Shown: piece by piece, positions 26,387-63,185 of the stretch
Numbering within the stretch: position 1 is the first letter of the stretch
Layout: each line of letters opens with the position of its first letter
Assembly (NCBI GenBank): GCA_016719885.1
Contig: JADJYF010000008.1
Span: 162,200 to 226,199, forward strand
Direction of reading: 5' to 3'
DNA: 64,000 nt
DNA from: Pseudomonadota bacterium
GTDB lineage: Bacteria > Pseudomonadota > Gammaproteobacteria > Ga0077536
Notes under the pieces: generated by a model
The model's input: only the letters and a program-made list of their open reading frames with translations
Database searches by the model: none
What the model was told of the DNA's origin: nothing
Position numbers and translations under genes: made by a program

Positions 26387-26563
26387 AAGCGGCCCGCGGC
26401 TGCTTGAGGTCTGTCGAAATCCGCAGTTCAATCGGGCGTGCGTGCCGCGGCGTGACATTCACGCGCGCCCGGCACGCATGTCCGCTTGGTGCCGGAGCGA
26501 CGGGCTCGGGCGCGAGCCCAGGCGCTCGCGATTCATCCGGCCAGCCTGTAACCAAAGGCTGCC

Positions 26564-29614: not shown

Positions 29615-30573
29615 GACGACAGTCCGAAAAAAAGATCTTCCAGCGACGCTTCCCTGACCTGGAAGTCGCGCAAACGCGCGGCCAGGCCGCCTACGGCTTG
29701 CAGCACGGCGAGCTTGTGCTGGCGCGCACAGGCGATGCGCAAGCCGGCGCCGACCTCGTGCACCGTGGCCGGCAAGGACGCCAGCGCCGCGCGCAGCGCC
29801 GGTACGACGGCGGCCTCGCAGTCGATGTCGAACCACAGCGGCAAATCCGCCTGGCCGCGCAATTCGCCGAGCGCGCCGACCGCACGCACGCGACCGGCGG
29901 CGATGATCGCGAGGCGGTCCACACGCTGCTGGATCTCGGCGAGGATGTGCGAGGTCAGCACGATGGTCACGCCGTCGGCGCGGAGTTCGGCGAGGATCGC
30001 GTAGAACTCGCGTATGCCGTCCGGATCGAGACCATTGGTCGGCTCGTCGAGGAACAACAGACGCGGTTGGCCCAGCAGCGCCTGGGCAAAGCCCAGCCGC
30101 TGACGCATGCCCTTGGAATATTCGCGGATGCGGCGCGTGGCGGCGGCGCCGAGTCCGACCCGCTCCAGCAGCGCGCGATGCCCGGACGGGCCGATGCCCT
30201 TAAGCCTGGCAAAGAAGTGCAAGGTCTCGAGCGCGTTCAAGTTGTCGTAGAACACCACGTTCTCCGGCAGGTAGCCGATGCGACGTCGCACTTCGCGGAA
30301 GTCGACACCGTCCACCGCCACGCCGTCGATGCGAATCGTGCCGCTGCTCGGCGCGATCAAACCCATCATCATCTTGAACAGGGTCGACTTGCCGGCGCCG
30401 TTGTGGCCGATGAGGCCGAACACTTCGCCGGGCACGATATCGAGCGTGACGCCGTCCAGCGCGTGCACCGCGCCGTAATGTTTGCTGGCGTCGCGCACCT
30501 CGACCAGCGCGCGCGGCACGGCGCGGTCAGCGGCTGCCGGGGTAGGTTCTGCCAAGCCAGTCTCTCCAGTCAC
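29611..30573 (-). CDS. nosF: NosF ABC ATPase
   Basis: Walker A GHNGAGKST, signature YSKGMRQRLGFA, Walker B LLFLDEP. The annotated start overlaps nosD by 47 nt, so the true start may be later. Confidence 0.88.
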   Translation of the reverse strand: MTGETGLAEPTPAAADRAVPRALVEVRDASKHYGAVHALDGVTLDIVPGEVFGLIGHNGAGKSTLFKMMMGLIAPSSGTIRIDGVAVDGVDFREVRRRIGYLPENVVFYDNLNALETLHFFARLKGIGPSGHRALLERVGLGAAATRRIREYSKGMRQRLGFAQALLGQPRLLFLDEPTNGLDPDGIREFYAILAELRADGVTIVLTSHILAEIQQRVDRLAIIAAGRVRAVGALGELRGQADLPLWFDIDCEAAVVPALRAALASLPATVHEVGAGLRIACARQHKLAVLQAVGGLAARLRDFQVREASLEDLFFGLSS

Positions 30574-31816: not shown

Positions 31817-31823
31817 GCGTGGT

Positions 31824-34442: not shown

Positions 34443-34566
34443 GGCCTTACCTCCAGACATCTTCATGGAGCAGGCGTGTTGCGGCCCGGGCGGTGAGTCA
34501 ATTCCGATCCCGAACACCGACGCCACGCGATCCCCGTGTCATCCTGTGCGGGTTGGGTGAAGTATA

Positions 34567-34595
34567 GAGCTGGTCTCACAATGTGAGACCAGCTC
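34567..34595 (-). terminator. 13-bp-stem hairpin between nosZ and nosR (GAGCTGGTCTCAC-AAT-GTGAGACCAGCTC)
   Basis: Perfect inverted repeat read directly; no clear U-tract. Confidence 0.5.
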
Positions 34596-34603
34596 CATGC
34601 AGC

Positions 34604-34632
34604 CTGGCCCCGTCGCCAAGCGACGGGGCCAG
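34604..34632 (-). terminator. 12-bp-stem GC-rich hairpin 9 nt downstream of the nosZ stop (CTGGCCCCGTCG-CCAAG-CGACGGGGCCAG)
   Basis: Perfect inverted repeat read directly; no clear U-tract. Confidence 0.5.
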
Positions 34633-34640
34633 GGCGTTGG

Positions 34641-36608: not shown

Positions 36609-36765
36609 CTTTTTTACTCCTCTTGCGTCGCGGAGTGCGCCGCGGTCCGAGACGGCGTCGCACAGAATTGGGACGATGCATGCCGGGGTGTCTGTCGCTC
36701 CCCGCGGCTCGTCACTGCGACATTTTGTCGCAGCAGTAATGTCGGCCGCGAGACCTGAAATCGCA

Positions 36766-36779
36766 TTGATCGATATCAA
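36766..36779. promoter_or_regulatory. Perfect FNR/DNR/NnrR-type box TTGAT-CGAT-ATCAA in the nosZ / nosX divergent region
   Basis: Exact palindrome read directly, centred ~164 nt from the nosZ ATG and ~166 nt from the nosX ATG. Confidence 0.7.
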
Positions 36780-36937
36780 AGCCCTATCCACAAAAATTTT
36801 GAGGATTAATTCCAGTTCCTCGAAATTCAAACCACGAAAATCTCATGGGCTGGGTAGCGAATCGGCGCGGGCGTGGGCATGGCGTGGACCGCGCGGGACA
36901 ATGGCGCGGCCGGCAGGGGCCTGTAACGAGATTGAAG

Positions 36938-37948
36938 ATGTCGAGAGCGATGTTGGTGAGACTGGTGTCGCTGGCGTGGCTGGCGCTTGCGATGGCCCAG
37001 GCGGCGACGGCCGATGCGCTGCGTCTGCGCGGCGAGACCATGGGCACCACCTGGCAGGTGAGCGTGGTCACGGCGACGCCGGCGGCGAGCGATCTCAGGC
37101 GGCGTATCGACGCACTGCTCGAACGCATCAACGGGCAGATGTCGACCTACCGGCCGCAGTCCGAGCTGTCGCTTTTGAATGCCAACCCGAGTCGCGACTG
37201 GCTGCCGGTGTCGGGCGAGCTCTTTACCGTGTTGCAGGCGGCGCGACAGGTCAGCATCGCCACCGATGGCGCCTTCGACATCACGGTCGGGCCGTTGGTG
37301 AACCTGTGGGGTTTCGGTGCGCAGGCTCGCGTTGATGCGCCGCCCTCAACGGGCGCCTTGCGCGACACCCAAGCCCGCGTCGGCTACCGGCAGCTTGAAC
37401 TGGCGGACGCGCCGCCGCGGCTACGCAAGGCGCGCGGCGACGTCTATCTCGACCTGTCGGCCATCGCCAAGGGTTACGCGGTCGACCAGGTCGCTGAACT
37501 GCTCGAGCGCGCCGGCATCACGGACTACCTGGTCGACATCGGTGGTGAGGTGCGCGCCCGCGGTCATAACGCCGAGGGCCGGCCGTGGCAGGTGGGCGTG
37601 GCGCTACCGCGCGCCGATGTCGACCGTATCGAGCGAGTGCTGCCCCTTACCGATACCGCGCTCGCCACCTCGGGCGATTACCGCAACTTTTTCGAATACC
37701 AGGGCCGTCGCTACTCCCACGAAATCGACCCCGCGAGCGGCCAGCCGGTCAGCAACGACGTGGCCTCGGTGAGCGTGCTGCACGCCTCGTGCATGCTGGC
37801 CGATGCCTATGCGACGGCTTTCATGGTGCTGGGCGCCGAGCGCGCGCTCGCCGTCGCCGCCCGGCACAAGCTCGAAGTGCTGTTCCTGCTGCGCGATGGC
37901 GAGGGATTTCGCGCCCGCGCCAGCGCCGGTTTTCCGGCGCGACGCTGA
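36938..37948 (+). CDS. nosX: ApbE-family FAD:protein FMN transferase (NosX)
   Basis: Signal peptide MSRAMLVRLVSLAWLALAMAQA; ApbE motifs AKGYAVDQV, TSGDY, HEIDPASG; adjacent to the nos cluster. Confidence 0.85.
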   Translation: MSRAMLVRLVSLAWLALAMAQAATADALRLRGETMGTTWQVSVVTATPAASDLRRRIDALLERINGQMSTYRPQSELSLLNANPSRDWLPVSGELFTVLQAARQVSIATDGAFDITVGPLVNLWGFGAQARVDAPPSTGALRDTQARVGYRQLELADAPPRLRKARGDVYLDLSAIAKGYAVDQVAELLERAGITDYLVDIGGEVRARGHNAEGRPWQVGVALPRADVDRIERVLPLTDTALATSGDYRNFFEYQGRRYSHEIDPASGQPVSNDVASVSVLHASCMLADAYATAFMVLGAERALAVAARHKLEVLFLLRDGEGFRARASAGFPARR

Positions 37949-38953: not shown

Positions 38954-39976
38954 TCAACCGGAAGCCGCGAAGAAGCGATCGAAGTACAGCTGTTCGGACG
39001 GCAAGCCCTTGGCGCTCAGCAGGCGGCTGACCGTTTCGCACATCGGCGGCGCGCCACACAGGTAGGCGTCGAGGTCGCGCGCGTTGTCGACCGCGTGCTG
39101 CACGGCGCGCGTGACGGTGCCGCTCGCGCCGCTCCATGCATCGCCGTCCTCGAGACCATCGAGGGTCGGCACGAAATCGAGTTTCACCCCCATCCCTGCG
39201 CGCAGTTCGTCGAGGTAGGGCAGGTCCTGTGGACGCCGCGCACCATAGAAAAGCGAAAAACTGCGCGGATCCTGGCGCTCGGCGGCGTCGCGCAGCATGG
39301 CCATGATCGGCGCGATACCGGAGCCTATCGCGCACAGCAACACCGGGCGCGTGCCGGCGCGCAGATAGCTCGCGCCGAACGGACCGCGCACCGCGATGGC
39401 CTGGCCGGCCTGCATGCGCTCGAGACCGCCGGAGAACGCGCCGCCCTCGATGCGCTTCATGACGAAACTCAGGCGTCGCGCCGACGACGGCGGTGAGGCC
39501 ATCGAGTAGCTGCGCCACACGGTGCCGTCGGCGCCGTCGAGACCGAGTTCGACGAATTGCCCGGCGTAGAATTCGAGCGGCGCCGGCAAGGCGACGTCGA
39601 GCTGCCACAGTTCGGGTGTGAGCTGCGTGACCGCCGCCACTTCGGCGTCGAAACGGCCGGGCGTCAACAACGGTAAGGCCCGCGCATCGGGCAGACGATG
39701 ATCGCGGATCAAGACGTCGCTCAAGGGACGCGCCCGGCACAACAGCGCCCAACCGGCGTCCTGTTCGTTCTCCGGCAGGGCGTAGGCGGTCACCTCGCCG
39801 AGATCGACCTCGCCGTCCTCCACCAGGTATTTGCAGGTCGAACAGCGGCCGTGGCGGCAGCCATAGGAAAGCTCGATACCGTGGCGCAGCGCGCCATCCA
39901 AAATCGTCTCGTGCTCGCCGCAGTTGAAGGTCTGGCCGCCGGGCGCGAGCTCGACGACGTATTCCACATCACTCAT
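38954..39976 (-). CDS. Monooxygenase NADH:ferredoxin-type reductase component ([2Fe-2S] + FAD/NAD domains)
   Basis: Plant-type cluster CRHGRCSTC...C; RSYSMAS FAD motif; GSGIAP NAD motif. Confidence 0.9.
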   Translation of the reverse strand: MSDVEYVVELAPGGQTFNCGEHETILDGALRHGIELSYGCRHGRCSTCKYLVEDGEVDLGEVTAYALPENEQDAGWALLCRARPLSDVLIRDHRLPDARALPLLTPGRFDAEVAAVTQLTPELWQLDVALPAPLEFYAGQFVELGLDGADGTVWRSYSMASPPSSARRLSFVMKRIEGGAFSGGLERMQAGQAIAVRGPFGASYLRAGTRPVLLCAIGSGIAPIMAMLRDAAERQDPRSFSLFYGARRPQDLPYLDELRAGMGVKLDFVPTLDGLEDGDAWSGASGTVTRAVQHAVDNARDLDAYLCGAPPMCETVSRLLSAKGLPSEQLYFDRFFAASG

Positions 39977-40004
39977 GAAAGTTGCAACCGACTGGGGCGG
40001 GCGT

Positions 40005-40319
40005 TCAGGGCTCGCGATGGATCTGCGTGACGTCGCTGGTCAGGATGAAGCGGTCCGGCTCGGTCATCACGCGTCCGACATAGGTGGACATGATGACCAG
40101 CCACTGCGACATGCTGAGCTCGGTGCCGAGCTCCTCGGCGACGGCCTTCAAATCGACCTCGATGCGGCCGGTCGGCGAGGTGATCTTCCAGAACGTGCCG
40201 TGATCGGCCACCTGGAGGGAAGGATCGTCGCGCTCCAGTACGTCGAGCGTGGCCTGCGCCTCGGGCGAGCCCTGCATGAGCACCAGCGACACATCGATGC
40301 GACCGCTGACCGCGTTCAT
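40005..40319 (-). CDS. MmoB/DmpM-family monooxygenase coupling (effector) protein
   Basis: 104 aa; size, position between hydroxylase beta and reductase, and family-like sequence. Confidence 0.75.
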   Translation of the reverse strand: MNAVSGRIDVSLVLMQGSPEAQATLDVLERDDPSLQVADHGTFWKITSPTGRIEVDLKAVAEELGTELSMSQWLVIMSTYVGRVMTEPDRFILTSDVTQIHREP

Positions 40320-41401
40320 GCCTGGCCGTCCAGTCGGCTCGCGAAGCCGAGTTCACGGATGATGGCGGCGCAGGCGGCACGCGCCGCGTCGCGGGAGGCG
40401 GCGAAACTCAGCGCGGGCTGCGGCGCGGCCTCGAACACCGGCGCCAACGCCACGACCGCGGCGTCGGCGCGCGCGCTCCAGTCGTCGAGCCAGCCCTGCA
40501 CCACGCCGCGATTATGCGCGGCATGGGCGCTGCCCTCGGCCGTGATCATGCGCACGAAGGCCTGGCTCGCCGCCAGGTTGCGGCGTCGATCGCGCTCGGC
40601 CGTCATGACGATATGCGGGGCGACGGCGTCGTCGTTGTGCATGGCGCCACGGCGGACGAGATCGCTGACCGCCACCTGTTGCAGCAGCGGGCCGACCACC
40701 AGGTTCAAACCCACCAGCAGCTCCGCCCAGTCAGTGGTGGCCATGATCTCCTCGGCCAGCTTGCGCGCCGGCTGGTAGGCCGGCGCGTTCATCCACTGCT
40801 GTTTACCGAGCGCGTCATCGACCGCCGCGTTGACGTTCTCGAGCTCGACCAGGTACACGACCACGTCCTGCGCGTGGCGCAGGTGATCGAAACTCTGGAA
40901 GCACAACAAATTGCCGAGCGTGTCGGACAAGGCCTCGCGCTGCGCCGGCGCCAGCGAACGGAAAATGGCGTATTCGAAGAACGACCACGCGCGGTAATGA
41001 CCGCACAGCATGTTCTTCACCCAGCCGGCCGACAGCATCGCGAGCGTGCCGTCCAGCGCCGCGTCCTCGGTCATGCGCGCGATGGAGGTTTCCTGCTGTT
41101 CCTGGTGACGCACATAGGTGCGCTGCCATTGCTGGGCCGGATCGCGGAACGCGTACCAGTTGTCGTGCCGGAGCTGCGTCGATGCCTGGTCCCACAGGGT
41201 GCGGCCGTCGGGCCGCAGCACGTACCACTCGGTGTCGTCGAGATTGGCGCCGACCTTGTCGAAGCCCCACGCGTCGGGCTGCTGATGCACCGTCAGCGCT
41301 TCGTACTCGGTCAAGCGCCGCGCGGCGGGCTTGATGAAGGTGAATTCGCGCGCCAGCTTGCCGGCGGCGCTGGCGGTGGTGTTGGCGTTGCTCGTGCTCA
41401 T
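40316..41401 (-). CDS. Soluble di-iron monooxygenase hydroxylase beta (small) subunit
   Basis: 361 aa; ATGA overlap with alpha stop; RRLTEYEALTVHQQP..., FRDP..WQRTYV blocks as in PrmC/ThmB-like subunits. Confidence 0.8.
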   Translation of the reverse strand: MSTSNANTTASAAGKLAREFTFIKPAARRLTEYEALTVHQQPDAWGFDKVGANLDDTEWYVLRPDGRTLWDQASTQLRHDNWYAFRDPAQQWQRTYVRHQEQQETSIARMTEDAALDGTLAMLSAGWVKNMLCGHYRAWSFFEYAIFRSLAPAQREALSDTLGNLLCFQSFDHLRHAQDVVVYLVELENVNAAVDDALGKQQWMNAPAYQPARKLAEEIMATTDWAELLVGLNLVVGPLLQQVAVSDLVRRGAMHNDDAVAPHIVMTAERDRRRNLAASQAFVRMITAEGSAHAAHNRGVVQGWLDDWSARADAAVVALAPVFEAAPQPALSFAASRDAARAACAAIIRELGFASRLDGQA

Positions 41402-42939
41402 TGCAGCACCACCACCGGCCCTTGCGAGGGCATGTCCTTCACCGGATCGCTGATGCAGAACTGCTGGCGGCGGATGTCGTCCAGCGTCCAGCGCCTGTCG
41501 GCATGCAGATGGGGCTGCGCCAGCAGGGTCTTGCCGTCGTTGCGGACGAGACCGCATTTCTCGATGAATTCGGCCAGCGAATAGCCATCGAAATGTTCGT
41601 CCCAGGTACGGCTTTGCGCATAGCGATGGGGCTCGAAAGCGAACGTGCGCTCACAGCCGTCGGAGCAGAACGCGTGCTTGCGTCCGCCGAAATCCTTGAT
41701 GCGCGCGGTGCTGATGTCGGGGCGCGGAAACACGCACGGCATGTGACACACGCGGCACAGCGGCGGCATGCTCGCGAACAGCGACAAGGGGATCTGGCCG
41801 TTGGCCGGATCGCTCATCTCGGCATAGGCCTCCCAGAACTTGCCGTAGCGGTCGTACCAGCCGGGATACTTCAATTCGAACCAGTCGAAGTCGCGCGCGT
41901 TCAGGGGATCGATGCGGATGAACTGCATCGGCCAGGTGGCGGCCAGCATCATCATGGCGGTGTGGCCCACCCACTTCACGCGCTCCTTGGCTTCCGCCCA
42001 GCCGCGCGGCAGCGCAACGCCGAAAGGTTCCAGGCGCTCGATATAACCGCCGCCCCAGTCGTTGCCCACCCACTCGGTCCAGGCTTCGAGGTAGGAGCCG
42101 CCGCGGTTTTCCTGGAAGTAGTCGTAGACCGCCGACACGAAGGTGTCGAGGAAGGTATGTTGCCGCCAGAACGCCGCGTCGAAATCACGCTGCAGCCGCG
42201 GCAGGTTGTCCGGCACCGAGGCAATCGCCGCCAGTGTCGAATAGCCATTGGCCATGTGCCGCGCCTCGTCCGACTGCACCGACAGGAAGGTGGTGGGCGT
42301 GGCCTGGTCGCCGTTGGCGGCCGCCACTTCCGTCAGGGTCACGAACAAGGGATTGGTATAGGCGGTTTCGGCCACCACCTGCAGGTTCAGGGCGCCTTCT
42401 ATCGGGTTGCCAGCGAAGAAACCGTCGAAGGCCGCGCGGCTCGCGCGCATCAGGAAATTGGTGTTGCGCAGCTTGAAACCGCGCTCGAAGCCTTCGGCGT
42501 CAACCGCGTGCTTGGCGAGATAGCGCACCAGGTGCGCTTCCTGGTTCACATGCCGCACTTCGTCGATCATCTGCGCGAGATAGCCCTGGCGGAGTTCCGC
42601 GTTGTCGACCGCGTCGACCAATTGGCCGGTGCACTTCATGGCCGCGTATTCCGCGTAGCAGGTCAGCGGCAGGGCAATCTTCAACACTTCGGTCCAGCGC
42701 TCGGAGGCCTTGGCCGGCATCTTGGCGCGCGCCATCACGTCGCTCATGGCGCCGTACTGGCGGTCGTCCTTGTCACGCTCCATGGAGCAGTAATCGCGCA
42801 CCAGGTGTCGGAAAGGATCGCTGGTCTTTGTAGGAATCTTGTACGGCATGTCGTAGCGCGATGCCGGTGCTTGGTAGGAAGCCTGCCAGTCGAAGTCCTT
42901 GACGCGGTCGTGGGCCTTGACGAAATCAGCGCTCTTCAT
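41398..42939 (-). CDS. Soluble di-iron monooxygenase hydroxylase alpha (large) subunit, PrmA/ThmA-like
   Basis: Di-iron ligand motifs QMIDEVRH and VQSDEARH; VVAETAYTNPLFV; FDWFELKYPGWYDRYGKFWE; Cys-rich C-terminal CRVCHMPC...FCSDGCERTF. Confidence 0.9.
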   Translation of the reverse strand: MKSADFVKAHDRVKDFDWQASYQAPASRYDMPYKIPTKTSDPFRHLVRDYCSMERDKDDRQYGAMSDVMARAKMPAKASERWTEVLKIALPLTCYAEYAAMKCTGQLVDAVDNAELRQGYLAQMIDEVRHVNQEAHLVRYLAKHAVDAEGFERGFKLRNTNFLMRASRAAFDGFFAGNPIEGALNLQVVAETAYTNPLFVTLTEVAAANGDQATPTTFLSVQSDEARHMANGYSTLAAIASVPDNLPRLQRDFDAAFWRQHTFLDTFVSAVYDYFQENRGGSYLEAWTEWVGNDWGGGYIERLEPFGVALPRGWAEAKERVKWVGHTAMMMLAATWPMQFIRIDPLNARDFDWFELKYPGWYDRYGKFWEAYAEMSDPANGQIPLSLFASMPPLCRVCHMPCVFPRPDISTARIKDFGGRKHAFCSDGCERTFAFEPHRYAQSRTWDEHFDGYSLAEFIEKCGLVRNDGKTLLAQPHLHADRRWTLDDIRRQQFCISDPVKDMPSQGPVVVLQ

Positions 42940-43041
42940 GTCTTCCTCCCCAGGAAATGATTACCGCGAAATGTGTAGGGCAAAGGTAACCGACCGGCGC
43001 TCCGCCGCCCAGCGTTTTTCCGTGCTGCATTGCGGCCCCCT

Positions 43042-51368: not shown

Positions 51369-52067
51369 TCAGGCGGAGCGACGACGCAGCAGGCCGAGCC
51401 CACCCAGCGCCGAGCCGAACAGCCACAGCGCGGTCGGCACCGGCACCGTGGCCGGCGCGGCAAAGAAGCTGACGCGCATCTCGTTCTGCGGCTGGGCCAG
51501 GATCGAGCCCGTACCGAATACGATGAGGGCGAGGTGCCCGTTGCTGAACGACAGCGACGAGAACTCGCCGAGCGGCGCGCTGGCGACCGCCGAGTAGTAG
51601 CCGCCGCTGAACACGCCCGGATCGTTGCTGGTGACGGTGCGCGACATCTCGCCGCTCATGACCTGCGGCGCGGAGCCGTCGATGGAGACCACGCCGTCGA
51701 GCGTCGCGAGCGTCGCGCTCTCGCCGAATTCGCTGAACACCAGGTTGCCGAAAAAGCCGTTGACCGCACCGCTCAAATGGCCGCCGTTGGCAGCGCTGAT
51801 GGTGAATGACGGCAGCTCGAACTCGGCGAAGTCGAGACTGTCGGTCACCGCCAGCTGCACGCTGCCCGGCACCGCCCACGACACGCTCACCAGGCCGCCC
51901 GCGCCGCCCAGGTCGACACTCGGCGCGCCGAAGACAGTCGAGTCGTCGAAGTCCAGCACGAAGCTGCCGTAGTCGATGGTCTGGGCCGCCGCCGACAGGC
52001 TCGCCACCCATCCCATCACACCCAACATTGCGCCTTTGAAATTCACTGCTGTGCTCCTTGGAAACAT
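51369..52067 (-). CDS. Secreted protein with PEP-CTERM-like (VPVP) C-terminal sorting signal
   Basis: Signal peptide; C-terminal VPVPTALWLFGSALGGLGLLRRRSA. Confidence 0.7.
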   Translation of the reverse strand: MFPRSTAVNFKGAMLGVMGWVASLSAAAQTIDYGSFVLDFDDSTVFGAPSVDLGGAGGLVSVSWAVPGSVQLAVTDSLDFAEFELPSFTISAANGGHLSGAVNGFFGNLVFSEFGESATLATLDGVVSIDGSAPQVMSGEMSRTVTSNDPGVFSGGYYSAVASAPLGEFSSLSFSNGHLALIVFGTGSILAQPQNEMRVSFFAAPATVPVPTALWLFGSALGGLGLLRRRSA

Positions 52068-52257
52068 TGCGTCACAAACGAAAGCCTGTGCGCTGTTGGA
52101 GTGGAGCTTAGTGAGGCGTCGGCAACGGCGGTCGACCGCGGTTCGCAGTTTTCAGCGCCGCGACAATGCTTGACGATTGCTGCCGGCTTTGTGTGACGGG
52201 CGCACGCTTTGGGTGGCTGATGCCGCGGCTGCTGTCGGCAATGGTATGTGCATTTGA

Positions 52258-52464
52258 ATGTCAGGCTGAAGCCTGACCCACAGGACCCGTGCCTTCTTGG
52301 TTGTGGGTCAGGCTTCAGCCTGACATTCAGGGCACATGCCTCTTGGTTGTGGGTCAGGCTTCAGCCTGACATTCAGGGCACATGCCTCTTGGTTGTGGGT
52401 CAGGCTTCAGCCTGACATTCAGGGCACATGCCTCTTGTTGTGGGTCAGGCTTCAGCCTGACATT
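52258..52464. repeat. REP-A array: one inverted copy, then four tandem 46-bp units (TGTGGGTCAGGCTTCAGCCTGACATTCAGGGCACATGCCTCTTGGT)
   Basis: Unit starts at 52302, 52348, 52394 and 52439 (last unit partial; third unit 45 bp). Inverted copy at 52260-52282. Confidence 0.92.
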
Positions 52465-52501
52465 GGGTCGCGAACAAATCCCTGCGCCAAAGGCACAAGG
52501 A

Positions 52502-53365
52502 TCAACTCGCGCTGCGCTTCACCCCGCCGCCATGCAGGGCATGGCTGCCGTCCTGCATCGCCTGCAAGGCCGCCGGTCGGCGCACGGTGGCGCGCCGACC
52601 GCAGGGGATCTGGTACTCGGTGTTGCCGGTGTAATAGCCCAGCATGTCGAGGAACTCGGGCGTCATGGCGGCCGCCACTTGCGGCCACAGCGCGGCGTTC
52701 CAGTTGATCTGCGGACGCAGCCAGCGCACCACGTAATAACCGAAAAGCGCGGCGCGCTGGCTGTCGGCGGAATGGTTGGCGCCGGTCTGGTGCCACAAAC
52801 GCCCGTCCATCACCAGCATGCTGCCGGCCGGCGCTTCGATGGCGACGGTTTCCACCGCTTCGCCACGTCGCGGACCGCGCCCCATGCGATGGGAGCCCGG
52901 CACGTAACAGGTGCCGCCGTTCTCGGCGGTGAAATCATCGAGCAGCCAGCCGACGTTGCAGGCCAGCGCCGGGCCCGCCCACGGCGAGTCGACATAACCC
53001 TGGTCGGCGTGCAGCAGCATGCGTTGACTGCCGGGCGCGGTGATATTGGCGCTGAAGTTCGAGATGAGAAAGGAATCACCGAGACTGTGGCGCACGAAAT
53101 CCAGCGCCGGCGCACGCTGCACGAGGTCGATGAACAGCGGGTCGAGATTGAACAGCTGGAACACGCGGCGATTGCGCTCGTCGCAGTCGAAGGCGTAGCC
53201 GCGCGTCGGCACCTCGTCTTCTTCGCTGGCGAGCGCCGCGGCCTCGAGCCGCGCGCGCACGTCCCGCACTTCGTCGCGGGACAGGGCGTCGGCGAGCAAT
53301 GCCAGCCCATGCTCGTCGAGTTGGGCCAGTGCTTCGTCGACATGACGGCAAGCGGTGATGGACAT
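52502..53365 (-). CDS. Phytanoyl-CoA dioxygenase (PhyH) family Fe(II)/2-oxoglutarate oxygenase
   Basis: HADQGY (HxD) and distal LWHQTG His; start MSITAC (53365). Confidence 0.75.
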   Translation of the reverse strand: MSITACRHVDEALAQLDEHGLALLADALSRDEVRDVRARLEAAALASEEDEVPTRGYAFDCDERNRRVFQLFNLDPLFIDLVQRAPALDFVRHSLGDSFLISNFSANITAPGSQRMLLHADQGYVDSPWAGPALACNVGWLLDDFTAENGGTCYVPGSHRMGRGPRRGEAVETVAIEAPAGSMLVMDGRLWHQTGANHSADSQRAALFGYYVVRWLRPQINWNAALWPQVAAAMTPEFLDMLGYYTGNTEYQIPCGRRATVRRPAALQAMQDGSHALHGGGVKRSAS

Positions 53366-53534
53366 ACGGGGCCTCGCAACGGTGACAGGCAATGCCTCGC
53401 AACTTAAGTGATGGTCGCCGTGGCGCATACCCCCGAAGGTGGGGCCGCGCCACGCGCGGCGACAAAGCGGCTTGCCACCGGCCGGCCGCTGCCGTCACCC
53501 TATGCGGCCCCTCACTCGATACAGGAGAACCAAC

Positions 53535-54575
53535 ATGGCCGAAGTGAATCGCCAGTGGCTGCTGCGCGCGCGGCCGAGCGGACATCTGCGCATGGACGAT
53601 TTCGAATATCGCGAAGTGCCCATGCCCAGCGCGCCGCTCGCGCCGGGGGAAATGCGCGTGCGCAACGTGGTGTTCCTGTGCGCGCCGACCATGCGCAATT
53701 GGATGGACCCGCCCGGCAACAGCTTCTACCCGTCCATCCCGCTCGGCCAGCCGATATTCGCGCCGGCGGTGGGCCGCGTGGTCGAAAGCAACAACCCGGA
53801 TTTCAAACCCGGCGATCGCGTGTTCGCGTTTTCGAGCTGGCAGGACTACACCACGGTCGGCGGCTCGACCGTGCGCGCGCCGAGCAAGTTGGTGGACGGC
53901 ATCAGCTTCATCGATGCCATCGGCCGCTACGGCCTGAATCCCATCACTGCCTACTTCGGTTTGCTCGATGTCGGCGCGGCCAAGGCCGGCGAAACCCTGG
54001 TGGTGTCGGGCGCGGCCGGCTCGACCGGTTCGACCGCCGCCCAGATCGGCAAGATCAAGGGCATGACCGTGATCGGCATCGCCGGCGGCGCGGAAAAGTG
54101 CGCGTGGCTCAAGAACGACTGCGGCCTCGACGGCGTCATCGACTACAAGTCGGAGAACGTCGAAGCGCGCCTCGCGGCGCTGTGCCCGAAAGGCATCGAC
54201 GTGTTCTACGACAACGTCGGCGGCGACATCCTGCAGGCGGCCGTCAACAACATGGCGCCGTTGGGACGCATCGTGCTGTGCGGCCAGATCTCGAGCTACG
54301 ACAGCAATGCCCAGGCCGAGGGCCCACGCAACATGATGCGCCTCATCTACGGCAGCATACGCATGCAGGGCTTCCTGTGCGGCAACTACGTGGCGCGCTT
54401 CGGCGAGGCGGTGACGGATCTGAAGGCCTGGTCGGCGGCCGGCCGCATAGTCTATCGCGAAGATCTCTACCAGGGCTTCGACAAGCTGCCCCGAGCCTTC
54501 GCCACGCTGTTCAGCGGCACCAACCAGGGCACGCTGCTGGTGGCGGTCGACGACAGCGCCGCCGACACGCGCTGA
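53535..54575 (+). CDS. NADP-dependent medium-chain (MDR) ene-reductase, YncB/PTGR-like
   Basis: AGGAGA SD; VSGAAGSTGS cofactor loop; layout like alkenal/one oxidoreductases. Confidence 0.8.
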   Translation: MAEVNRQWLLRARPSGHLRMDDFEYREVPMPSAPLAPGEMRVRNVVFLCAPTMRNWMDPPGNSFYPSIPLGQPIFAPAVGRVVESNNPDFKPGDRVFAFSSWQDYTTVGGSTVRAPSKLVDGISFIDAIGRYGLNPITAYFGLLDVGAAKAGETLVVSGAAGSTGSTAAQIGKIKGMTVIGIAGGAEKCAWLKNDCGLDGVIDYKSENVEARLAALCPKGIDVFYDNVGGDILQAAVNNMAPLGRIVLCGQISSYDSNAQAEGPRNMMRLIYGSIRMQGFLCGNYVARFGEAVTDLKAWSAAGRIVYREDLYQGFDKLPRAFATLFSGTNQGTLLVAVDDSAADTR

Positions 54576-54674
54576 GCACGGCCGGAGGCGTGATGCGGTG
54601 CGCGGTTTCGATGCGCTATTCTGCGGCTAGCGCGGCGCGCCGCGGCGCCGCCCCCCATCGCACGAGGTGAGTTC

Positions 54675-55706
54675 ATGCCAGTCAGCGATCACGCGCTAGT
54701 CGAAGCCTGGAAATCGGTACTCACGCTGTGCGAGGTAAGGGCCGGCGACAACATCACGCTGCTCACCGGCAGCCACACCCATGCCCAGACCCTGCGCACC
54801 GCCATCGCCGCGGTGCGCGCGCTCGGCGCGATACCGACCTGCATCGCTCTCGAACCTTTGAACGCGGACAAGTCCCTGAGCCGCGATCCGCTCGCCTACC
54901 TCGGCACCACGCCCCTGACCGGCAATCGCGCCGCCATGGCCGCCTGCCTTGCCAGCAGCCTCGTGATCGATCTCATGCTCTTGCTGTTCTCGCCGGAGCA
55001 GCAGCAGATCCTGGAATCGGGCACGCGCATCCTGCTGGCGGTCGAACCGCCGGAAGTGTTGCTGCGCCTGTTGCCGACGCTCGAAGACCGCGCGCGGGTC
55101 AACGCCGCGGCCGTGCATCTCGCCAGCGCGCGCACCATGCACGTGACGTCCGCGGCCGGCACCGATGTCATGTTCCGCCTCGGGCAATACCCGGTCATCA
55201 AGGAATACGGTTTCGTCGACGAGCCGGGGCGCTGGGATCACTGGCCGAGCGGCTTCCTGTTCACCTGGCCCAACGAAGGCGCGTCCGACGGCACCATCGT
55301 GCTCGACCAGGGCGACATCCTGCTGCCGCAGAAACGCTACCTGTCGGCGCCCGTCACGCTCACCGTCAAGCACGGCTACGTGACCGACATCGCCGGCGGC
55401 CTCGAGGCTGACCTCTTCAACGAGTACATGCAGAGTTTCAACGACCCGGAAGGCTATGCGCTGTCCCATGTCGGCTGGGGTCTGCAGCATCGCGCCAAGT
55501 GGTCGACCCTGAGCCTCTACGATCGTGAACAGACCATCGCCATGGACGCGCGCGCCTTCGCCGGCAATTTCCTGTTCTCGCTCGGCCCCAATACCGAGGT
55601 GGGCGGCACGCGCAATACCGCCTGCCATATCGACATCCCGCTGCGCGGCTGCACCGTCAAACTCGATGAGCGGGTGGTGGTGCGGGCCGGTGCACTGGTG
55701 GAATGA
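54675..55706 (+). CDS. NicX-like 2,5-dihydroxypyridine 5,6-dioxygenase family (M29 aminopeptidase-T fold) protein
   Basis: Blocks [67 protein letters not shown] match my memory of Pseudomonas putida NicX. Confidence 0.65.
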
Positions 55707-55716
55707 GATCCTGATC

Positions 55717-56187
55717 ATGACGACATCACTCAAGGTCAACGGCAAAGCGGTCAGCATCGACGCGGTAGGCGAGATGCCACTCTTGTGGGTGCTGCGCGAA
55801 CAGCTCGGCCTGACCGGCACCAAGTACGGCTGCGGCATCGGCGCCTGCGGCGCCTGCACCGTGCATCTCGACGGCACCGCCATGCGCGCCTGCCAGGTGC
55901 CGTTGGAAATGACCGCCGGCAAGGAGGTGCTGACCATCGAAGGCTACGGCGCCGACGGCCTGCACCTGCTGCAGAAAGCCTGGATAACCCACCAGGTGCC
56001 GCAATGCGGCTACTGCCAGTCGGGCATGATCATGGCGGCGGCGGACCTGTTGAAACGCAATCCCGCGCCGAGCGACGCCGACATCCGCCAGGCCATCACC
56101 AACCTGTGCCGTTGCGGCACCTACGAGCGCATCATCGCCGCGATCCTCGACGCCGCCAGCCAGATGCGCAACGGTCAGAGCGCATGA
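55717..56187 (+). CDS. [2Fe-2S]-binding small subunit of a molybdenum hydroxylase (IorA/NicA-like)
   Basis: Cluster motifs [10 protein letters not shown] and CGYCQSG...CRCGTY. Confidence 0.92.
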
Positions 56188-58424
56188 GCGCCGCGCCCAT
56201 GTTGACGCGCCGCGCGCTGTTGAAGGCAAGCCTGCTCGGCGCGGGCGCGGTGGGCTTCGGTGTGAGCGGGCTCGGCGCCGTCGCGGCCGGTGGCGAGGCG
56301 GAAGTCACGTCGTGGATAGTCATTCGCGCCGACGGCCGCGTGGTGATCCGCATTCCGCAATCGGAGCTCGGCCAGGGCGTCACCACCAGCCTCGCGCAGC
56401 TCATCGCCGAGGAAATGGACCTCGCCTGGGGCGAATTCGATACCGAGTATTTCGACGCGCAGATCAACCGCGAGCGGCACAATGTCTACGTGCACACCGC
56501 GACCTTGAACAGCTGGTCGTCGGACCTGCTGTTCGAACCTATGCGTCTTGCCGGCGCGCAGGTGAAACGCATGCTGCTGACGGCGGCGGCCGCGAAGTTG
56601 AAGGTTGAGGTCGAGGCGCTAGTCATCGAAGGCGCGCGCATCCGGCACGGCGCGAGCGGCCGCAGCCTCGGCTTTGCCGAAGTGGCGAAGGCGGCGGCCG
56701 CCTTGCCGGTGCCGCCGGCGGCCAGCCTCGAGCTCAAAGACCGCGGGCAATGGAAACTCATCGGCCAGTCGCTGCCGCGCCTCGATGCCGAGGCCAAGGC
56801 CACCGGCGCGGCTCAATTCGGCATCGATGTCAGCTTGCCGGGCATGAAATACGCCGCCGTGCGCCAGTCGCCGGTGTTCGGCGGCCGTCTGCGCGGCTTC
56901 GATGCGAGCAAGGTGATGGCCATGCCGGGCGTCATCAAGGTGGTCGCAATCAAGGCCGGACCGTCGGGCTACACCGTGCCCGATACGCTGTGGGACATCA
57001 TCGACTGGCAGATGGACGACGCAGTGGCGGTGATCGCCGACAGCTGGTGGCTGGCCGAGCAAGCCTTGCGCGCCTTGCCCATCAGCTGGGACGAGGGCGC
57101 CAACGCCAAGGTCGACAGCGCCGCCATCGCCACCGCGCTGGACGCGGCCTTGAAGCAGCCGGGCACGGTGATGCGCGGCGAAGGCGATGTCGACGCGGCA
57201 CTCGCCACGGCCGCCAGGACCATCGCGGCCGAGTATCGCTATCCCTACATGGAACATGCGCCGCTCGAGCCCATGAACGCGACGGCGCTGGTCACCGCGC
57301 AAGGCGTGGAAGCATGGGCGCCCAGCCAATATGCCGACGAGGCGCTGCGCATCGCCGCCTACGCCGCGCAGCGCCCCTTGAAGGACGTCAAGCTGCATTT
57401 GACCTTGAGCGGCGGCGGTTTTGGCCGGCGCCTGTCCAACGACTACGTGAGCCAGGCGGTACAGGTCGCGGCGCAATTGCCGAACGTACCGGTCAAGCTC
57501 ATCGCCTCGCGCGAGGAAACCACGCGGCGCGGTTACTACGCACCGGTGGCGGCGGCGCGCATGCGCGGCGGACTCGATGCAGAGGGGCGCGTCGTCGCGT
57601 GGCACAGCCATGTCGCTTTCGGTCGCGCGCCGCTGCAGCCCTACGGCATGTCGCGCATCCCGTTCGCCATCGACCATGTGCGCTGCGAATACTCGAGCAT
57701 CGACACGCCGCCACCGTTCGGCTGGATGCGCGGCGTGGCCCATACCCAGGGCCTGTGGATGAACCTCGGCTTCCTCGGCGAACTGGCGGAAGCGGCCGGC
57801 AAGAGCAGCATCGAGATGCAGTTCGCGCTGCTCGACGAGTCACGCCTGTCGCGCCAACGCAGCGATTACGACGACGCGCTGGCGCGCATCAGGCGCCAGA
57901 AGTCGCTGCTCGAAACGGTGGTGAAGCTCGCCGGCGGCGCGCGCCTCGATGCGCCGGGCAAGGGGCGTGGCATCGCGGTCACGGACATGAGCTACGTGCC
58001 CGGCTATCACTCCTCGTGCGTGGCCATGGCCATGGACGTCGCCCTCGATGCTGAAGGCCGGCTGCGCGTCGAGCGCGTGATCGCGGTGGTCGATGTCGGG
58101 CTCGCCATCAATCCGCGCAACGTCGAGGCACAGGTGCAGGGCGGCATCGCCTTCGGCCTGTCGAATGCGATGTATGGCCAGATCACCCTGCGTGACGGTC
58201 GCGTCGAACAAGGCAACTTCAACGACTACCCGGTCATGAAGATGATGGCCATGCCGCGCGTCGAGGTGCACATCCAGCCGTCCAGCGGCCGGCCCAGTGG
58301 CATCGGCGAGGAAGCGGTGCCGGTGGCGGTGGCGGCGCTGGTCGACGCGGTGTACGCAGCGGGCGGACCGCGCGTGCGTTCGCTGCCGCTGGCCGCGCAC
58401 AAGCTCACGCCGCGCAAGGCTTAG
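56184..58424 (+). CDS. Molybdopterin-binding large subunit of a molybdenum hydroxylase (IorB / isoquinoline 1-oxidoreductase beta-like)
   Basis: ATGA overlap with small subunit; Tat-like [15 protein letters not shown]; [18 protein letters not shown] and aldehyde-oxidase/XDH-type blocks. Confidence 0.88.
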
Positions 58425-58434
58425 CGCGCTGCCC

Positions 58435-58941
58435 ATGAACGCGCCCGATGTGATGCGCGTCGGCGCCGCCGACAGCGCGCTGGGCCTGGCGCTGCGCGCG
58501 GTGTTTGCGCTCCATGGCCTGGCTGTTGAATGGCTGGCCGACGGCGGCGAGATCCCCGGCAGCTACTGGGGCGAATGCGAAGCGGGCTTGGTGAAATCGA
58601 CGCTCTACGTGCGCGCCGACACACCGGTGCATTCGGCCCTGCACGAAGGTTGCCATTACGTCTGCGCCGACGACGAACGCCGCGCCAACCTGCACACCGA
58701 TGCCGGCGGCAGCGACACCGAGGAATGCGCGGTGTGTTACCTGTCCATCGTGCTGGCGGCGGAGCTGCCGGGATTCGGCCAGTCACGCATGCTGACCGAC
58801 ATGGACGCCTGGGGTTATTCATTCCGGCTCGGCAGCGCCGCGCGTTGGCTGGTCGAAGATGCCGAAGATGCGCGCGCGTGGCTGCTCGCCCATGCATTGC
58901 CGACCGCACTCGATCCCGAATACGACAGGACACGCCCATGA
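58435..58941 (+). CDS. Hypothetical 168-aa protein with HExxH motif
   Basis: Protein-like composition; HEGCH at 58642-58656; 10-nt gap after the Mo subunit and ATGA overlap with the amidase. Confidence 0.6.
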   Translation: MNAPDVMRVGAADSALGLALRAVFALHGLAVEWLADGGEIPGSYWGECEAGLVKSTLYVRADTPVHSALHEGCHYVCADDERRANLHTDAGGSDTEECAVCYLSIVLAAELPGFGQSRMLTDMDAWGYSFRLGSAARWLVEDAEDARAWLLAHALPTALDPEYDRTRP

Positions 58942-60957
58942 GCGAAGATTTCGAACACGGCATTCGCGAAGCGAGCATCGCCGAGCTGCGTGCGGCGCTC
59001 GCCGCCGGCCGCTTGAGCGCAACGGCGCTGGTGTGTCGTTACCTCAACCGCATCGCGCATTACGATCATCACGGCATTCGCTTGAACGCCGTGCCGATTC
59101 TGAACCCGCAACTGTTTGCCGAGGCGCGCGCCGCCGACGAACGACGCCGCAAGGGCGAAACGCGCGGGCCGCTGGACGGCATTCCCTATCTCGCCAAGGC
59201 CAGCTACGCAGTCAAGGGGCTGCCGCTCACCAGCGGTTCGCCGGCCTTCGAACATCTCATCGCGCGCGAAGATGCCTTTGTCATCGCCGAGCTGCGCGCG
59301 GCCGGCGCCATACTCATGGGTCTGACCACCATGCCGCCGATGGCGGCGGGAGGCATGCAACGCGGCTTGTTCGGGCGCGCGGAAAGTCCGTATAACGCAG
59401 CCTTCCTCACCGCCGCCTTCGCCTCCGGTTCCTCCAACGGCTCGGGCAGCGGCCTCGCGGCGGGCTTCGCCGCCTTCGCGCTCGCCGAAGAGACCTGGTC
59501 GTCGGGTCGCGCGCCCGCCACCAACAACGGCCTGGTCGCCTACACGCCGTCGCGCGGCATGATCTCCATGCGCGGCAATTGGCCCTTGATTCCGACCATG
59601 GACGTGGTGGTGCCCTACGCGCGCAGCGTGGCCTGCCTGCTCGACGTGTTGAACGTGGTGGTGAAGGACGACCCTGTCGCACGCGGTGATTTCTGGCGTG
59701 CGCAAACCGCCGTGCAGCTGCCCGCCGCGTCGGCGTTGCGCCCCGCCGACTACAGCGCACTCGGCGATGCCGGGGCCCTGCGTGGCAAACGGATCGGCGT
59801 GCCGCGCATGTACATCAACCGCGACGCCGCGAGCACGCGCCCCATCGCCACGCGCGCCTCGGTCATAGCCTGCTGGCAGGCGGCGGCACGCGCCCTGACG
59901 GCGGCCGGCGCGGAAGTCTTGGAAGTCGACTTCCCCTTGGTTTCGAACTACGAAAAAGACCGGCCCGGCGCCATGACCATGGTCGAGCGTGGACTGGCGC
60001 CCGCCGAGTTCGCGCATGCCGAGGGCTTCGACGCGATCGTGTTTGCGTGGGACGATTTCCTGGCCGCCAATGCCGACCCGCATCTCGCGAACCTTGCCGA
60101 CGTGGCGCCGGATCTCATCATTCCGCGCCTGCCAGGCGCCGAGCGCGATCGCTACGAGGGCATTCCCAATTTCGGCGACTACGCCAACGCCGCCAAGGCC
60201 GGCGTCACGCCGCACAACGACATCCCGCATCTTGCCGCGGGACTGCGCGGCCTCGAACAAACGCGCAAGCAGGATTTGGAAGCGTGGCTCGATGCCGAGG
60301 GTCTGGACATGCTGGTGTTTCCGGCGGTGGCCGACATCGCGCCGGCCGATGCCGACTACAACCGGCGCGCGGCCGACATCGCGTGGCGCAACGGCACCTG
60401 GGTGGCCAACGGCAACCAGGCCATCCGCCATTTCGGCGTGCCGACCGTGACCGTGCCGATGGGCATGCTCGCCGACATCCACATGCCCATCGGTCTGACC
60501 TTCGCCGGACGCGCCTACGACGATGCACGGCTGCTCGCCGCCGCGTTTGCCTTCGAACAGTGCACGCGACAACGTCGCGCCGCACCACGCACGCCGCCGC
60601 TCGCCGATGACGGCGCCTTGCCGGCCGCGCGCGTGCCAGGCATGCAGGCCTTGCCTGCGCTCGAGCTGGGCGCCGGGATCTCCGGATGTCGATGGCGACG
60701 GCATGGTGACCCTGACGATATCCGGCAAAGTGAGCAGCAGCGCGCCGCTCGCAAAGCTGGCGCTGTGGGTCAATGGCACGCCGCAGCTGCTGCGCCAGGA
60801 GGGCGCTGGGTTTCGCGCCGAAGTACGGCTGCCCTTCGACACCCATTACGCCCTGCACAGCCGCTGGCGCGGCCCCTATGGATCGGTCATCACGGCGCTC
60901 GCGGAAGACCACCACGGCGGCGCGGCGGGCGCTTACGTGGTGGTGGGAGGCGTGTAG
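58938..60957 (+). CDS. Amidase-signature family amidase; the C-terminal ~90 aa are only readable after a frame change near 60640-60685
   Basis: AS signature ASGSSNGSGSGLAAG. Core is readable in frame 0 to ~60660, after which frame 0 becomes Arg-rich junk running through REP elements to 61118. Frame +1 encodes a protein-like tail (SPDVDGDGMVTLTISGKV...VVVGGV, stop 60957). Confidence 0.75.
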
Positions 60958-60992
60958 ATTCCTGTCGCGATGCCGGCAATGAACGCGGCGAT

Positions 60993-61175
60993 GTCAGGCT
61001 GAAGCCTGACCCACAGGGAACTCAGGCGGCCGGGCATTCTTGTGGACCAGGCTTCAGCATGACCCACAGAAAGGTCGGGAGGCAGGGCTATTTCATTGTG
61101 GGTCAGGCTTCAGCATGACCCACAGAAAGGTCGGGAGGCAGGGCATTTCATTGTGGGTCAGGCTTCAGCCTGACA
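60993..61175. repeat. REP-A array: one inverted copy, then three direct copies at 55-56-bp spacing; the first two carry a full 28-bp palindrome variant
   Basis: Copies at 60993-61015 (inverted), 61041-61068, 61097-61124 and 61152-61175. The intervening GAAAGGTCGGGAGGCAGGGC(T)ATTTCAT is repeated. Confidence 0.92.
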
Positions 61176-61210
61176 TGCTTTCACAGCCCGTGTGCCCGAT
61201 AGCCCCTCGA

Positions 61211-62369: not shown

Positions 62370-63185
62370 ATGATCAATCTGCACTATGTCGAACGCGGAC
62401 AGGGCCCGGTGCTGCTGTTCGTGCACGGTTGGTCGCAAAGCACGCGCTGCTTCGAAAAGCAGTTGGCGGATCTCAGCGATCGCTATCGCGTGATGGCGGT
62501 CGACATGCGCGGCCACGGTGAATCGCCCAAGCCCAGCCATGGCTACCGCGTGGCGCGCCTCGCCCAGGACCTGCACGAGTTCCTGCTCCAGCACGATCTG
62601 CGCGAGGTGGCGCTGGCCGGCCATTCCATGGGCGCCTCGATCATCTGGAGCTATGTCGAACAGTTCGGCGCCGAGCGCCTGGCCAAGCTCATCTTCATCG
62701 ACCAGGCGCCGCTGGTGACCAACGGCATGGGACTCACTGGCGAGGCGCTGGCGGCGGCGGGCTGCGCCTTCACACCGACCTCGCTGTACGAGATTGCCCA
62801 CGGCATCGCGACCAACAGGGAAGCGAGCCTGGCCGGCCTGCGCAGCGCGTTCTTCAGCAGCGCGGTCGGCGACGACGATTTCAGTATGGCGGTGAGCGAG
62901 AGCCTGAAAGTACCGGCGGCCTGTGCGGCACGCCTGCTGATCGATCACGCCTCGCAGGACTGGCGCGACGTGATCACGGAGGTCATCCCGGGCCTGGGCT
63001 TGCCGACCCTGGTATTCGGCGGCGAGCTCGCCACCATCTTTCCGCCGCAGTCGGCGGCGTGGATAGCCTCACGCATCCCGGGCGCGCGCCTGTCGATCTT
63101 CGGCCGCGAGGAAGGCGGCAGTCACTTCATGTTCTGGGAGAACCCGGCGAAGTTCAACGCCGTGCTGCGCGACTTCCTCGGTTGA
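62370..63185 (+). CDS. Alpha/beta hydrolase
   Basis: HGW oxyanion region, nucleophile elbow GHSMG, C-terminal His region GGSHFMFWENP. Confidence 0.88.
   Translation: MINLHYVERGQGPVLLFVHGWSQSTRCFEKQLADLSDRYRVMAVDMRGHGESPKPSHGYRVARLAQDLHEFLLQHDLREVALAGHSMGASIIWSYVEQFGAERLAKLIFIDQAPLVTNGMGLTGEALAAAGCAFTPTSLYEIAHGIATNREASLAGLRSAFFSSAVGDDDFSMAVSESLKVPAACAARLLIDHASQDWRDVITEVIPGLGLPTLVFGGELATIFPPQSAAWIASRIPGARLSIFGREEGGSHFMFWENPAKFNAVLRDFLG

Follow-up and report, generated by a model that had tools for sequence, protein, structure and literature searches.

A NicX-type dioxygenase gene linked to a two-gene NdhAB-type molybdenum hydroxylase in uncultured Gammaproteobacteria: a candidate module for hydroxylation and opening of a pyridine ring

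In bacteria, the breakdown routes of nicotinate, nicotine, picolinate and hydroxypyridines share 2,5-dihydroxypyridine as a common funnel, and to our knowledge the four-component HpdA is the sole enzyme defined at the gene level that forms this compound from 3-hydroxypyridine. Here we describe a stretch of 64,000 nucleotides (nt) (JADJYF010000008.1 of assembly GCA_016719885.1, positions 162,200 to 226,199, forward strand; hereafter the window) in which nicX, the gene of a NicX-type dioxygenase, is followed by the two genes of a molybdenum (Mo) hydroxylase of the NdhAB type. Gene calls were taken from a listing of open reading frames (ORFs) with their translations, and families were assigned by Pfam, NCBIfam and PDB sequence searches.

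The functional residues of NicX, namely the Fe ligands, Glu177 and His189, and the Leu104-His105 gate, have been described for the Pseudomonas putida enzyme (PMC7910607). NdhAB is a periplasmic enzyme of two subunits, exported by twin-arginine translocation (Tat), which has no flavin adenine dinucleotide (FAD) and uses a separately encoded pseudoazurin as electron acceptor (PMC7688666). The 3hpd cluster of Ensifer adhaerens HP1 is a proven 3-hydroxypyridine cluster made up of HpdA1A2A3A4, which include a separate SRPBCC subunit, and hpdDBCE (bioRxiv 10.1101/2020.01.08.898148). The three genes of the window that resemble parts of these systems, hereafter the triad, are as follows.

54675-55706, + strand: NicX-type Fe(II) 2,5-dihydroxypyridine 5,6-dioxygenase, 343 amino acids (aa) (PDB 7CN3 match; triad part 1)
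55717-56187, + strand: small [2Fe-2S] subunit of the Mo hydroxylase, 156 aa (Pfam Fer2, Fer2_2; triad part 2)
56184-58424, + strand: large molybdopterin subunit, 746 aa (Pfam MoCoBD_1, MoCoBD_2, Ald_Xan_dh_C; triad part 3)

The gene of the iron-sulfur (FeS) subunit starts 10 nt past nicX and overlaps the gene of the Mo subunit by ATGA. The triad probably acts on a simple pyridine ring, first hydroxylating it and then opening it. We favor, with moderate confidence, a functional unit of nicX and the two-gene hydroxylase in which 3-hydroxypyridine would be converted to 2,5-dihydroxypyridine and the ring of the latter would then be opened.

The identity of the dioxygenase was settled by the PDB sequence search and by precomputed Pfam matches, as local Pfam and NCBIfam scans of the protein were empty even at E ≤ 10. 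Residues 1-342 aligned without gaps on residues 1-342 of P. putida NicX (PDB 7CN3; E = 3.8e-120), and the homologues of the protein carry the precomputed entry PF26233:NicX. The Fe ligands (His265, Ser302, His318 and Asp320) and the substrate contacts Glu177 and His189 were unchanged in the window protein as well as in each of the 88 homologues aligned; Glu308 was also conserved in the window protein, as was the gate position Leu104. Position 105 is Phe in the window protein; among the 88 aligned sequences, 87 also have Phe there, the annotated NdpE included, and only P. putida NicX, whose H105F variant retains activity (PMC7910607), differs. Full-length homology, equal length, the Fe ligands and Glu177/His189 thus ally the protein with NicX, Hpo and NdpE, the group to which NicX of the P. 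putida KT2440 nic cluster belongs. The initial annotation had called it NicX-like and named M29 aminopeptidases as the family to be distinguished from it; because of the full-length homology and the conserved active site, the latter assignment fails, and the 343-aa protein is assigned as a NicX-type 2,5-dihydroxypyridine dioxygenase.

We scanned one genome per species for NicX, which gave 80 loci, and examined the flanks within 5 kb for nicD, nicF and nicE. The seven closest loci (73-92% identity to the window NicX) were all in metagenome-assembled genomes (MAGs) of uncultured Gammaproteobacteria or Pseudomonadota. NicX was followed by the FeS and then the Mo subunit in all seven, with FeS and Mo proteins 63-92% identical to those of the window, and no homologue of nicD, nicF or nicE was found within 5 kb in any of them. 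The other loci differed: 71 of the 73 had at least one of nicD, nicF and nicE, and 52 had all three, usually in the order nicD-nicX-nicF, whereas the triad clade has the Mo hydroxylase downstream instead. The triad NicX proteins were monophyletic in 60 of 60 neighbor-joining bootstraps. A metagenome scan found the triad in every locus that had a Mo subunit at least 62% identical and upstream sequence present. In a megablast of the cluster against plasmids, just short matches to the NicX or FeS genes (70-75%) were obtained. NicX, FeS and Mo subunits are a conserved, uncharacterized three-gene module, and the proposal that NicX is functionally tied to the adjoining hydroxylase gains from this conserved linkage across related loci.

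The triad was found in at least two contexts, one a backbone with His-phosphatase and medium-chain dehydrogenase/reductase (MDR) genes, the other a set of IcmF, enoyl-CoA hydratase (ECH) and zinc-dependent alcohol dehydrogenase (Zn-ADH) genes with CoxD/CoxE-like genes. At locus L011 (13769-15941, - strand), CoxE- and CoxD-like maturation genes come directly after the Mo gene. At locus L009, likewise a triad context, the Mo gene is followed 2.8 kb downstream by a FmdA/AmdA-type formamidase gene (16533-17729, - strand).

The hydroxylase consists of Fer2 and Fer2_2 in the small subunit and MoCoBD_1, MoCoBD_2 and Ald_Xan_dh_C in the large one, with nothing further detected by Pfam. The Tat signal that had been noticed on the Mo subunit was seen as a twin-arginine motif (TRRALLK, residues 9-15) with a hydrophobic stretch behind it; such motifs also occur in the Mo-subunit orthologues of Sphingosinicella, Ruegeria and locus L093. 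The best solved relative of the Mo subunit was the membrane aldehyde dehydrogenase of Gluconobacter (E = 4.5e-52). In tblastn searches of annotated plasmids, its best matches were nicotine dehydrogenase subunit L of Sphingobium (46.5% identity) and NdhA of Shinella pShin-05 (42-43%), with the next group at 37%, and between the small subunit and its counterparts in the Sphingobium and Shinella nicotine dehydrogenases the identity was 56-57%. Homologues of the Mo subunit formed a continuum from 99% to about 54% identity, after which the nicotine dehydrogenases came at 45-47%.

The window enzyme therefore resembles NdhAB, VppA and Ndp S+L (Agrobacterium tumefaciens S33, Shinella HZN7 and Sphingobium) in its pair of [2Fe-2S] and Mo subunits, its Tat motif, and its lack of an FAD subunit and of a cytochrome c domain. 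Unlike NdhAB, it has no adjoining pseudoazurin gene and no further nicotine-pathway genes, and it falls in a separate NicX-linked group whose members are 54-85% identical. It is accordingly placed, by similarity, in an uncharacterized branch of the NdhAB-type family, with a predicted substrate. The label 'IorAB-like' given to it earlier was right about the two-subunit FeS/Mo architecture, for which 'NdhAB-like' is more precise; names such as 'isoquinoline 1-oxidoreductase beta subunit' on its homologues are automatic labels of the Joint Genome Institute (JGI). The reported lack of a cytochrome c subunit likewise held for the whole window, but it is not a novelty, because the two-subunit NdhAB uses a separately encoded pseudoazurin.

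Two cultured relatives combine this hydroxylase with a complete set of lower-pathway genes. Sphingosinicella xenopeptidilytica has the order nicE-nicD-nicX-nicF-FeS-Mo, with a Mo subunit 61% identical to that of the window. In Ruegeria sp. Ofav3-42, a Mo orthologue (54%) lies at most 3 kb from NicX, a luciferase-like monooxygenase gene stands between the two, and nicE, nicD and nicF follow downstream. No NicC/HspB-type flavin monooxygenase or decarboxylase was found in either cluster, and the two therefore point to 2,5-dihydroxypyridine being made directly, with 3-hydroxypyridine as the simplest starting compound. The 3hpd cluster has the same logic, in which a Mo hydroxylase yields 2,5-dihydroxypyridine for the maleamate pathway and no flavin monooxygenase or decarboxylase takes part (bioRxiv 10.1101/2020.01.08.898148). 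It differs in that HpdA has four components, as opposed to the two subunit genes of the window enzyme, which has no SRPBCC subunit. The maleamate genes of 3hpd also have no counterpart in the window, whereas the Sphingosinicella and Ruegeria clusters do have them.

Mo hydroxylases of the family to which the window enzyme belongs act on the ring carbon adjacent to the nitrogen. Since such an attack on 3-hydroxypyridine gives 2,5-dihydroxypyridine in one step, 3-hydroxypyridine is the simplest substrate. In the mechanism that we propose, the large subunit would be exported to the periplasm by Tat and would carry the [2Fe-2S] subunit along. There the enzyme would hydroxylate a 3-substituted pyridine at the carbon beside the ring nitrogen, with water as the oxygen donor, and would pass the electrons to a soluble acceptor encoded elsewhere. 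The most economical substrate would be 3-hydroxypyridine, turned into 2,5-dihydroxypyridine in a single step, and cytoplasmic NicX would then cleave this product between C5 and C6 to N-formylmaleamate. The deformylase, maleamate amidase and maleate isomerase would be supplied from elsewhere in the genome. As homologues are missing from the 64-kb window, the lower pathway and the electron acceptor must either lie elsewhere in the genome or be of another kind.

The earlier observation that NicC/HspB, NicD and NicF are not encoded locally indeed extends to the whole 64-kb window. The deformylases NicD/Nfo/NdpF gave no match at E < 1e-4, and no homologue was found of the isochorismatase-type maleamate amidase NicF/Ami/NdpG, of the maleate isomerase NicE/Iso/NdpH, of the decarboxylating flavin monooxygenase NicC/HspB/NdpD or of a hydroxylase FAD subunit. 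Two further candidates for steps of the pathway were considered. The alpha/beta hydrolase downstream (62370-63185) was considered as NicD and rejected: NdpF and the Shinella NicD-like protein gave no tblastn match to it at E < 1e-4. With the NicD-type hydrolases that the Sphingosinicella and Ruegeria clusters encode, it shares only 21-26% identity.

The soluble diiron monooxygenase class includes 2-hydroxypyridine 5-monooxygenase, which makes 2,5-dihydroxypyridine. At 38954-42960 on the - strand, four genes encode a soluble diiron monooxygenase with alpha and beta subunits, an MmoB/DmpM coupling protein and an FAD/[2Fe-2S] reductase, and the closest solved relative of its alpha subunit is methane monooxygenase MmoX (E of about 1e-113). 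We set it aside as a 2-hydroxypyridine 5-monooxygenase feeding NicX, as it lies about 10-12 kb off with unrelated genes between and its nearest relative is MmoX.

Several observations weigh against the favored reading. The absence of nicD, nicF and nicE from the 64 kb leaves a complete pathway in the organism unproven, and a search of the window for electron-acceptor genes, with the azurin of Shinella and the cytochrome c of Sphingosinicella, found no homologue. The substrate of every member of the NicX-linked hydroxylase group is a prediction from sequence. Scans of the cluster found zero promoter-like sites and terminator-like sites rarer than in shuffled sequence, and were thus uninformative about the predicted co-transcription. 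Finally, locus L093, a 60% relative, lacks NicX and adjoins FAD monooxygenase and amine oxidase genes, a nicotine-like context.

The last observation, together with the rank of nicotine dehydrogenase subunits as best annotated matches, would fit a hydroxylase that is a nicotine dehydrogenase orthologue, or an enzyme acting on another 3-substituted pyridine alkaloid, with NicX ending a dispersed hybrid pathway of the VPP type (pyridine and pyrrolidine pathway variant). However, the Mo subunit is just 42-48% identical to nicotine dehydrogenases compared to 54-85% inside the NicX-linked group, no homologue of Hno, Pno, Ald or HspB/NdpD occurs within 10 kb of any triad or in the window, and the Sphingosinicella cluster is complete without an HspB-type enzyme. 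We consider a nicotine-type role unlikely.

NicX is normally part of nic clusters, and hydroxylation beside the ring nitrogen of a 3-substituted pyridine would be the same chemistry as that of nicotinate 6-hydroxylase. The window enzyme might thus be a functional analogue of NicAB, with the 6-hydroxynicotinate monooxygenase NicC encoded elsewhere. This is highly improbable in our estimation: no NicC homologue was found near any triad or in the Sphingosinicella and Ruegeria clusters, and the NicB-like proteins of canonical nic clusters are just 24-27% identical to the Mo subunit.

We return to the reading with 3-hydroxypyridine as substrate. An NdhAB-type two-component hydroxylase wired to NicX was not described in the open-access literature, the search of which did not extend to subscription journals. 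The arrangement is not categorically new; it is an unusually reduced arrangement of a known dioxygenase and a hydroxylase from an uncharacterized branch of an established family. If our reading is correct, the two-subunit, Tat-exported NdhAB-type enzyme would be a second solution to the reaction of HpdA, to which it is related at the superfamily level only. Proteins whose annotation goes no further than 'isoquinoline 1-oxidoreductase' or 'xanthine dehydrogenase family' would also gain a function. The proposal is directly testable, since the cultured Sphingosinicella xenopeptidilytica and Ruegeria sp. Ofav3-42 combine the hydroxylase with the complete maleamate pathway.

The triad is embedded in a longer run of genes, and its other features are listed below.

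52248-52482, no strand: array of palindromes like repetitive extragenic palindromic (REP) elements, five repeats with a period of about 46 nt (repeat scan)
52502-53428, - strand: PhyH-family Fe(II)/2-oxoglutarate oxygenase, divergent (Pfam PhyH, E = 1.6e-26)
53535-54575, + strand: MDR NADPH-dependent enone-reductase-like protein, 346 aa (Pfam ADH_N_2, ADH_zinc_N)
58435-58941, + strand: HExxH protein, 168 aa (no family match)
58938-60957, + strand: AguY/Tse8-family amidase-signature amidase, frameshifted (Pfam Amidase; NCBIfam PRK06565)
60987-61195, no strand: REP-like array of the same palindromes, just past the true amidase stop (repeat scan)
62370-63185, + strand: alpha/beta hydrolase (Pfam Abhydrolase_1)

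The ORF listing reproduced the run of six co-directional genes on the + strand with the starts first assigned to them, and also the divergent PhyH gene and the downstream alpha/beta hydrolase. From MDR to amidase, the intergenic spacings are 99, 10, -4 (ATGA), 10 and -4 (ATGA) nt. All six genes had been proposed to form one new pathway, and in a model of this kind the ene-reductase, the HExxH protein and the amidase would replace NicE, NicD and NicF. The tight spacing with ATGA overlaps, the absence of canonical nicD, nicF and nicE from the window and from all triad loci, and the presence of the amidase in the three closest lineages (window/L109, L007 and L001/L096) speak for such a pathway.

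Comparison of related loci showed a mosaic instead. The syntenic locus L003 has the order cation-efflux, luciferase, His-phosphatase, MDR, HExxH, epimerase, hydrolase and acyl-CoA dehydrogenase (ACAD), and NicX, FeS, Mo and amidase are all missing from it. Its MDR is 86% identical to that of the window, and its HExxH gene starts 9 nt past the MDR stop. L008/L087 has MDR-NicX-FeS-Mo-HExxH-epimerase with no amidase, and L007, L001/L096 and L109 have the full window arrangement including the amidase. As MDR and HExxH lie side by side in the triad-less L003, they are genes of the host chromosome; MDR, HExxH, epimerase, hydrolase and ACAD form a chromosomal backbone into which the triad was inserted. 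In this lineage the module entered an operon of MDR and HExxH that already existed, and the AguY/Tse8-type amidase was added downstream later. The gene-neighborhood analysis thus upheld NicX, FeS and Mo as genes conserved together, while MDR, HExxH and amidase proved separable, and the tight spacing lost its value as a sign of one functional unit. A single pathway of all six genes is quite unlikely given these loci, the widespread occurrence of HExxH homologues in unrelated contexts, the family of the amidase and the plasmid amidase homologues described below. Tight spacing and overlapping start and stop codons are no proof of shared function, as here a catabolic module went cleanly into an unrelated operon.

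The MDR protein scored 286 bits against the CurA model of NCBIfam, below the cut-off of 440. The alpha/beta hydrolase is present in the triad-less L003 and missing from the triad-bearing L008, and we class it as a backbone gene rather than a NicD-type deformylase. The PhyH gene accompanies the triad in L007, L008/L087 and L109 and is missing in L003 and in the remaining triad contexts. The gene next to it (51369-52067, - strand) encodes a 232-aa protein without any family match; the pair of them is present in L007, L008/L087 and L109 and missing in L003, and it may have come in together with the NicX module or be associated with that module.

Pfam, NCBIfam and PDB sequence searches with the HExxH protein were all empty. 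It has at least 7,870 homologues, with no functional name among the 120 best listed, and those of Thiolinea and other bacteria adjoin unrelated genes. His66, His70, Glu71, His74, Cys77, Glu96, Glu97 and Cys101 are invariant, which gives the family pattern H-x3-HE-x2-H-x2-C ... EE-x3-C. The AlphaFold (AF2) model had a predicted local distance difference test (pLDDT) score of 91.9, and Foldseek found no structural neighbor for it in the PDB (best E = 1.3). We regard the protein as a member of a very large, highly conserved, uncharacterized and putatively metal-binding family with no Pfam entry. A role as deformylase was considered and dropped, since nothing in the sequence or structure searches backs it, and membership in the pathway is contradicted by its unrelated contexts elsewhere and by its place beside MDR in L003.

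The amidase passed the NCBIfam model PRK06565 (850.6 bits, cut-off 575, residues 9-556) and aligned over the whole catalytic domain with Tse8 of Pseudomonas aeruginosa (6TE4; E = 8.5e-202). The motifs of its Lys/cis-Ser/Ser triad (AKASY, GSSNGSG and ETWSSGR) align with those of Tse8. AguY, a member of the PRK06565/Tse8 family, is a non-canonical N-carbamoylputrescine amidohydrolase defined by an adjoining aguA (PMC12283126). The window amidase shares with AguY and Tse8 the match to PRK06565, the catalytic-domain alignment and the catalytic residues. It differs from them in its neighbors, which are the HExxH protein and the epimerase with no agmatine deiminase gene aguA, in its frameshift, and in a C-terminal extension of about 90-100 aa (60697-60957) that is missing in Tse8 and AguY and has no Pfam match. 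Homologues with the same extension occur on plasmids of Shinella, Sinorhizobium and Roseateles, none of them next to NicX, and their surroundings there were uninformative. The amidase is found in window/L109, L007 and L001/L096 and is missing in L008/L087 and L003. By its sequence and distribution, it is assigned to the AguY/Tse8 family as a later, lineage-specific addition, and its link to the pathway is unproven. The suggestion that an amidase-signature enzyme replaces NicF does not fit an enzyme whose characterized relatives act on N-carbamoylputrescine (PMC12283126) and which some triad loci lack.

A more specific variant would keep the new two-component 3-hydroxypyridine 6-hydroxylase and assume that the triad lineages have lost NicD, NicF and NicE and handle N-formylmaleamate in another way. 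As one example, an amidase-signature amidase could convert it to maleate and formamide, and an MDR enone reductase could saturate the double bond, so that a maleate isomerase would be unnecessary. Release of formamide would fit the FmdA-type formamidase near the triad of L009, and such a route, if true, would give 2,5-dihydroxypyridine a second lower pathway, not homologous to the first. The presence and absence of amidase and MDR across the loci weigh against their taking over the lower pathway, and we judge this variant decidedly improbable.

The amidase had been given an end at about 60957. The frame that opens at 58938 in fact continues to 61118 (726 aa), and the protein-like C-terminus that ends at 60957 lies in a different frame. 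Alignment with a 98%-identical MAG contig (L109, GCA_016703575.1) showed one extra G near 60684 in the window, and the L109 amidase is intact, with 672 aa ending at the equivalent of 60957. The tail of the 726-aa frame reads through a REP-like repeat array and is therefore non-coding. Conversely, nicX of L109 is broken by a 1-nt deletion at about 8539 (window 54722). A programmed frameshift or a real pseudogene event is unlikely, since the amidase of L109 is intact and yet its nicX has an indel of its own; the reciprocal 1-nt indels look like assembly or sequencing errors rather than biology.

The REP-like palindrome TGTGGGTCAGGCTTCAGCCTGACAT has 22 matches in the window, compared to 0 expected. 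Tandem arrays of 4-5 copies flank the block from PhyH to amidase, and the array is about twice as long in L109. Single copies occur near 13917-13990, 18345, 27843 and 44030, all of them intergenic; as the same palindrome is found at these four other sites, we rejected the arrays as boundaries of a mobile block. Elsewhere in the window, a nitrous oxide reductase cluster (nosZ, nosR, nosD, nosF, nosL and ApbE; 28272-37948) indicates a denitrifying host. A pyrroloquinoline quinone (PQQ)-dependent dehydrogenase gene (23894-25708) and a pair of genes for an extracytoplasmic function (ECF) sigma factor and an NrsF anti-sigma factor (26552-27774) lie upstream of it.

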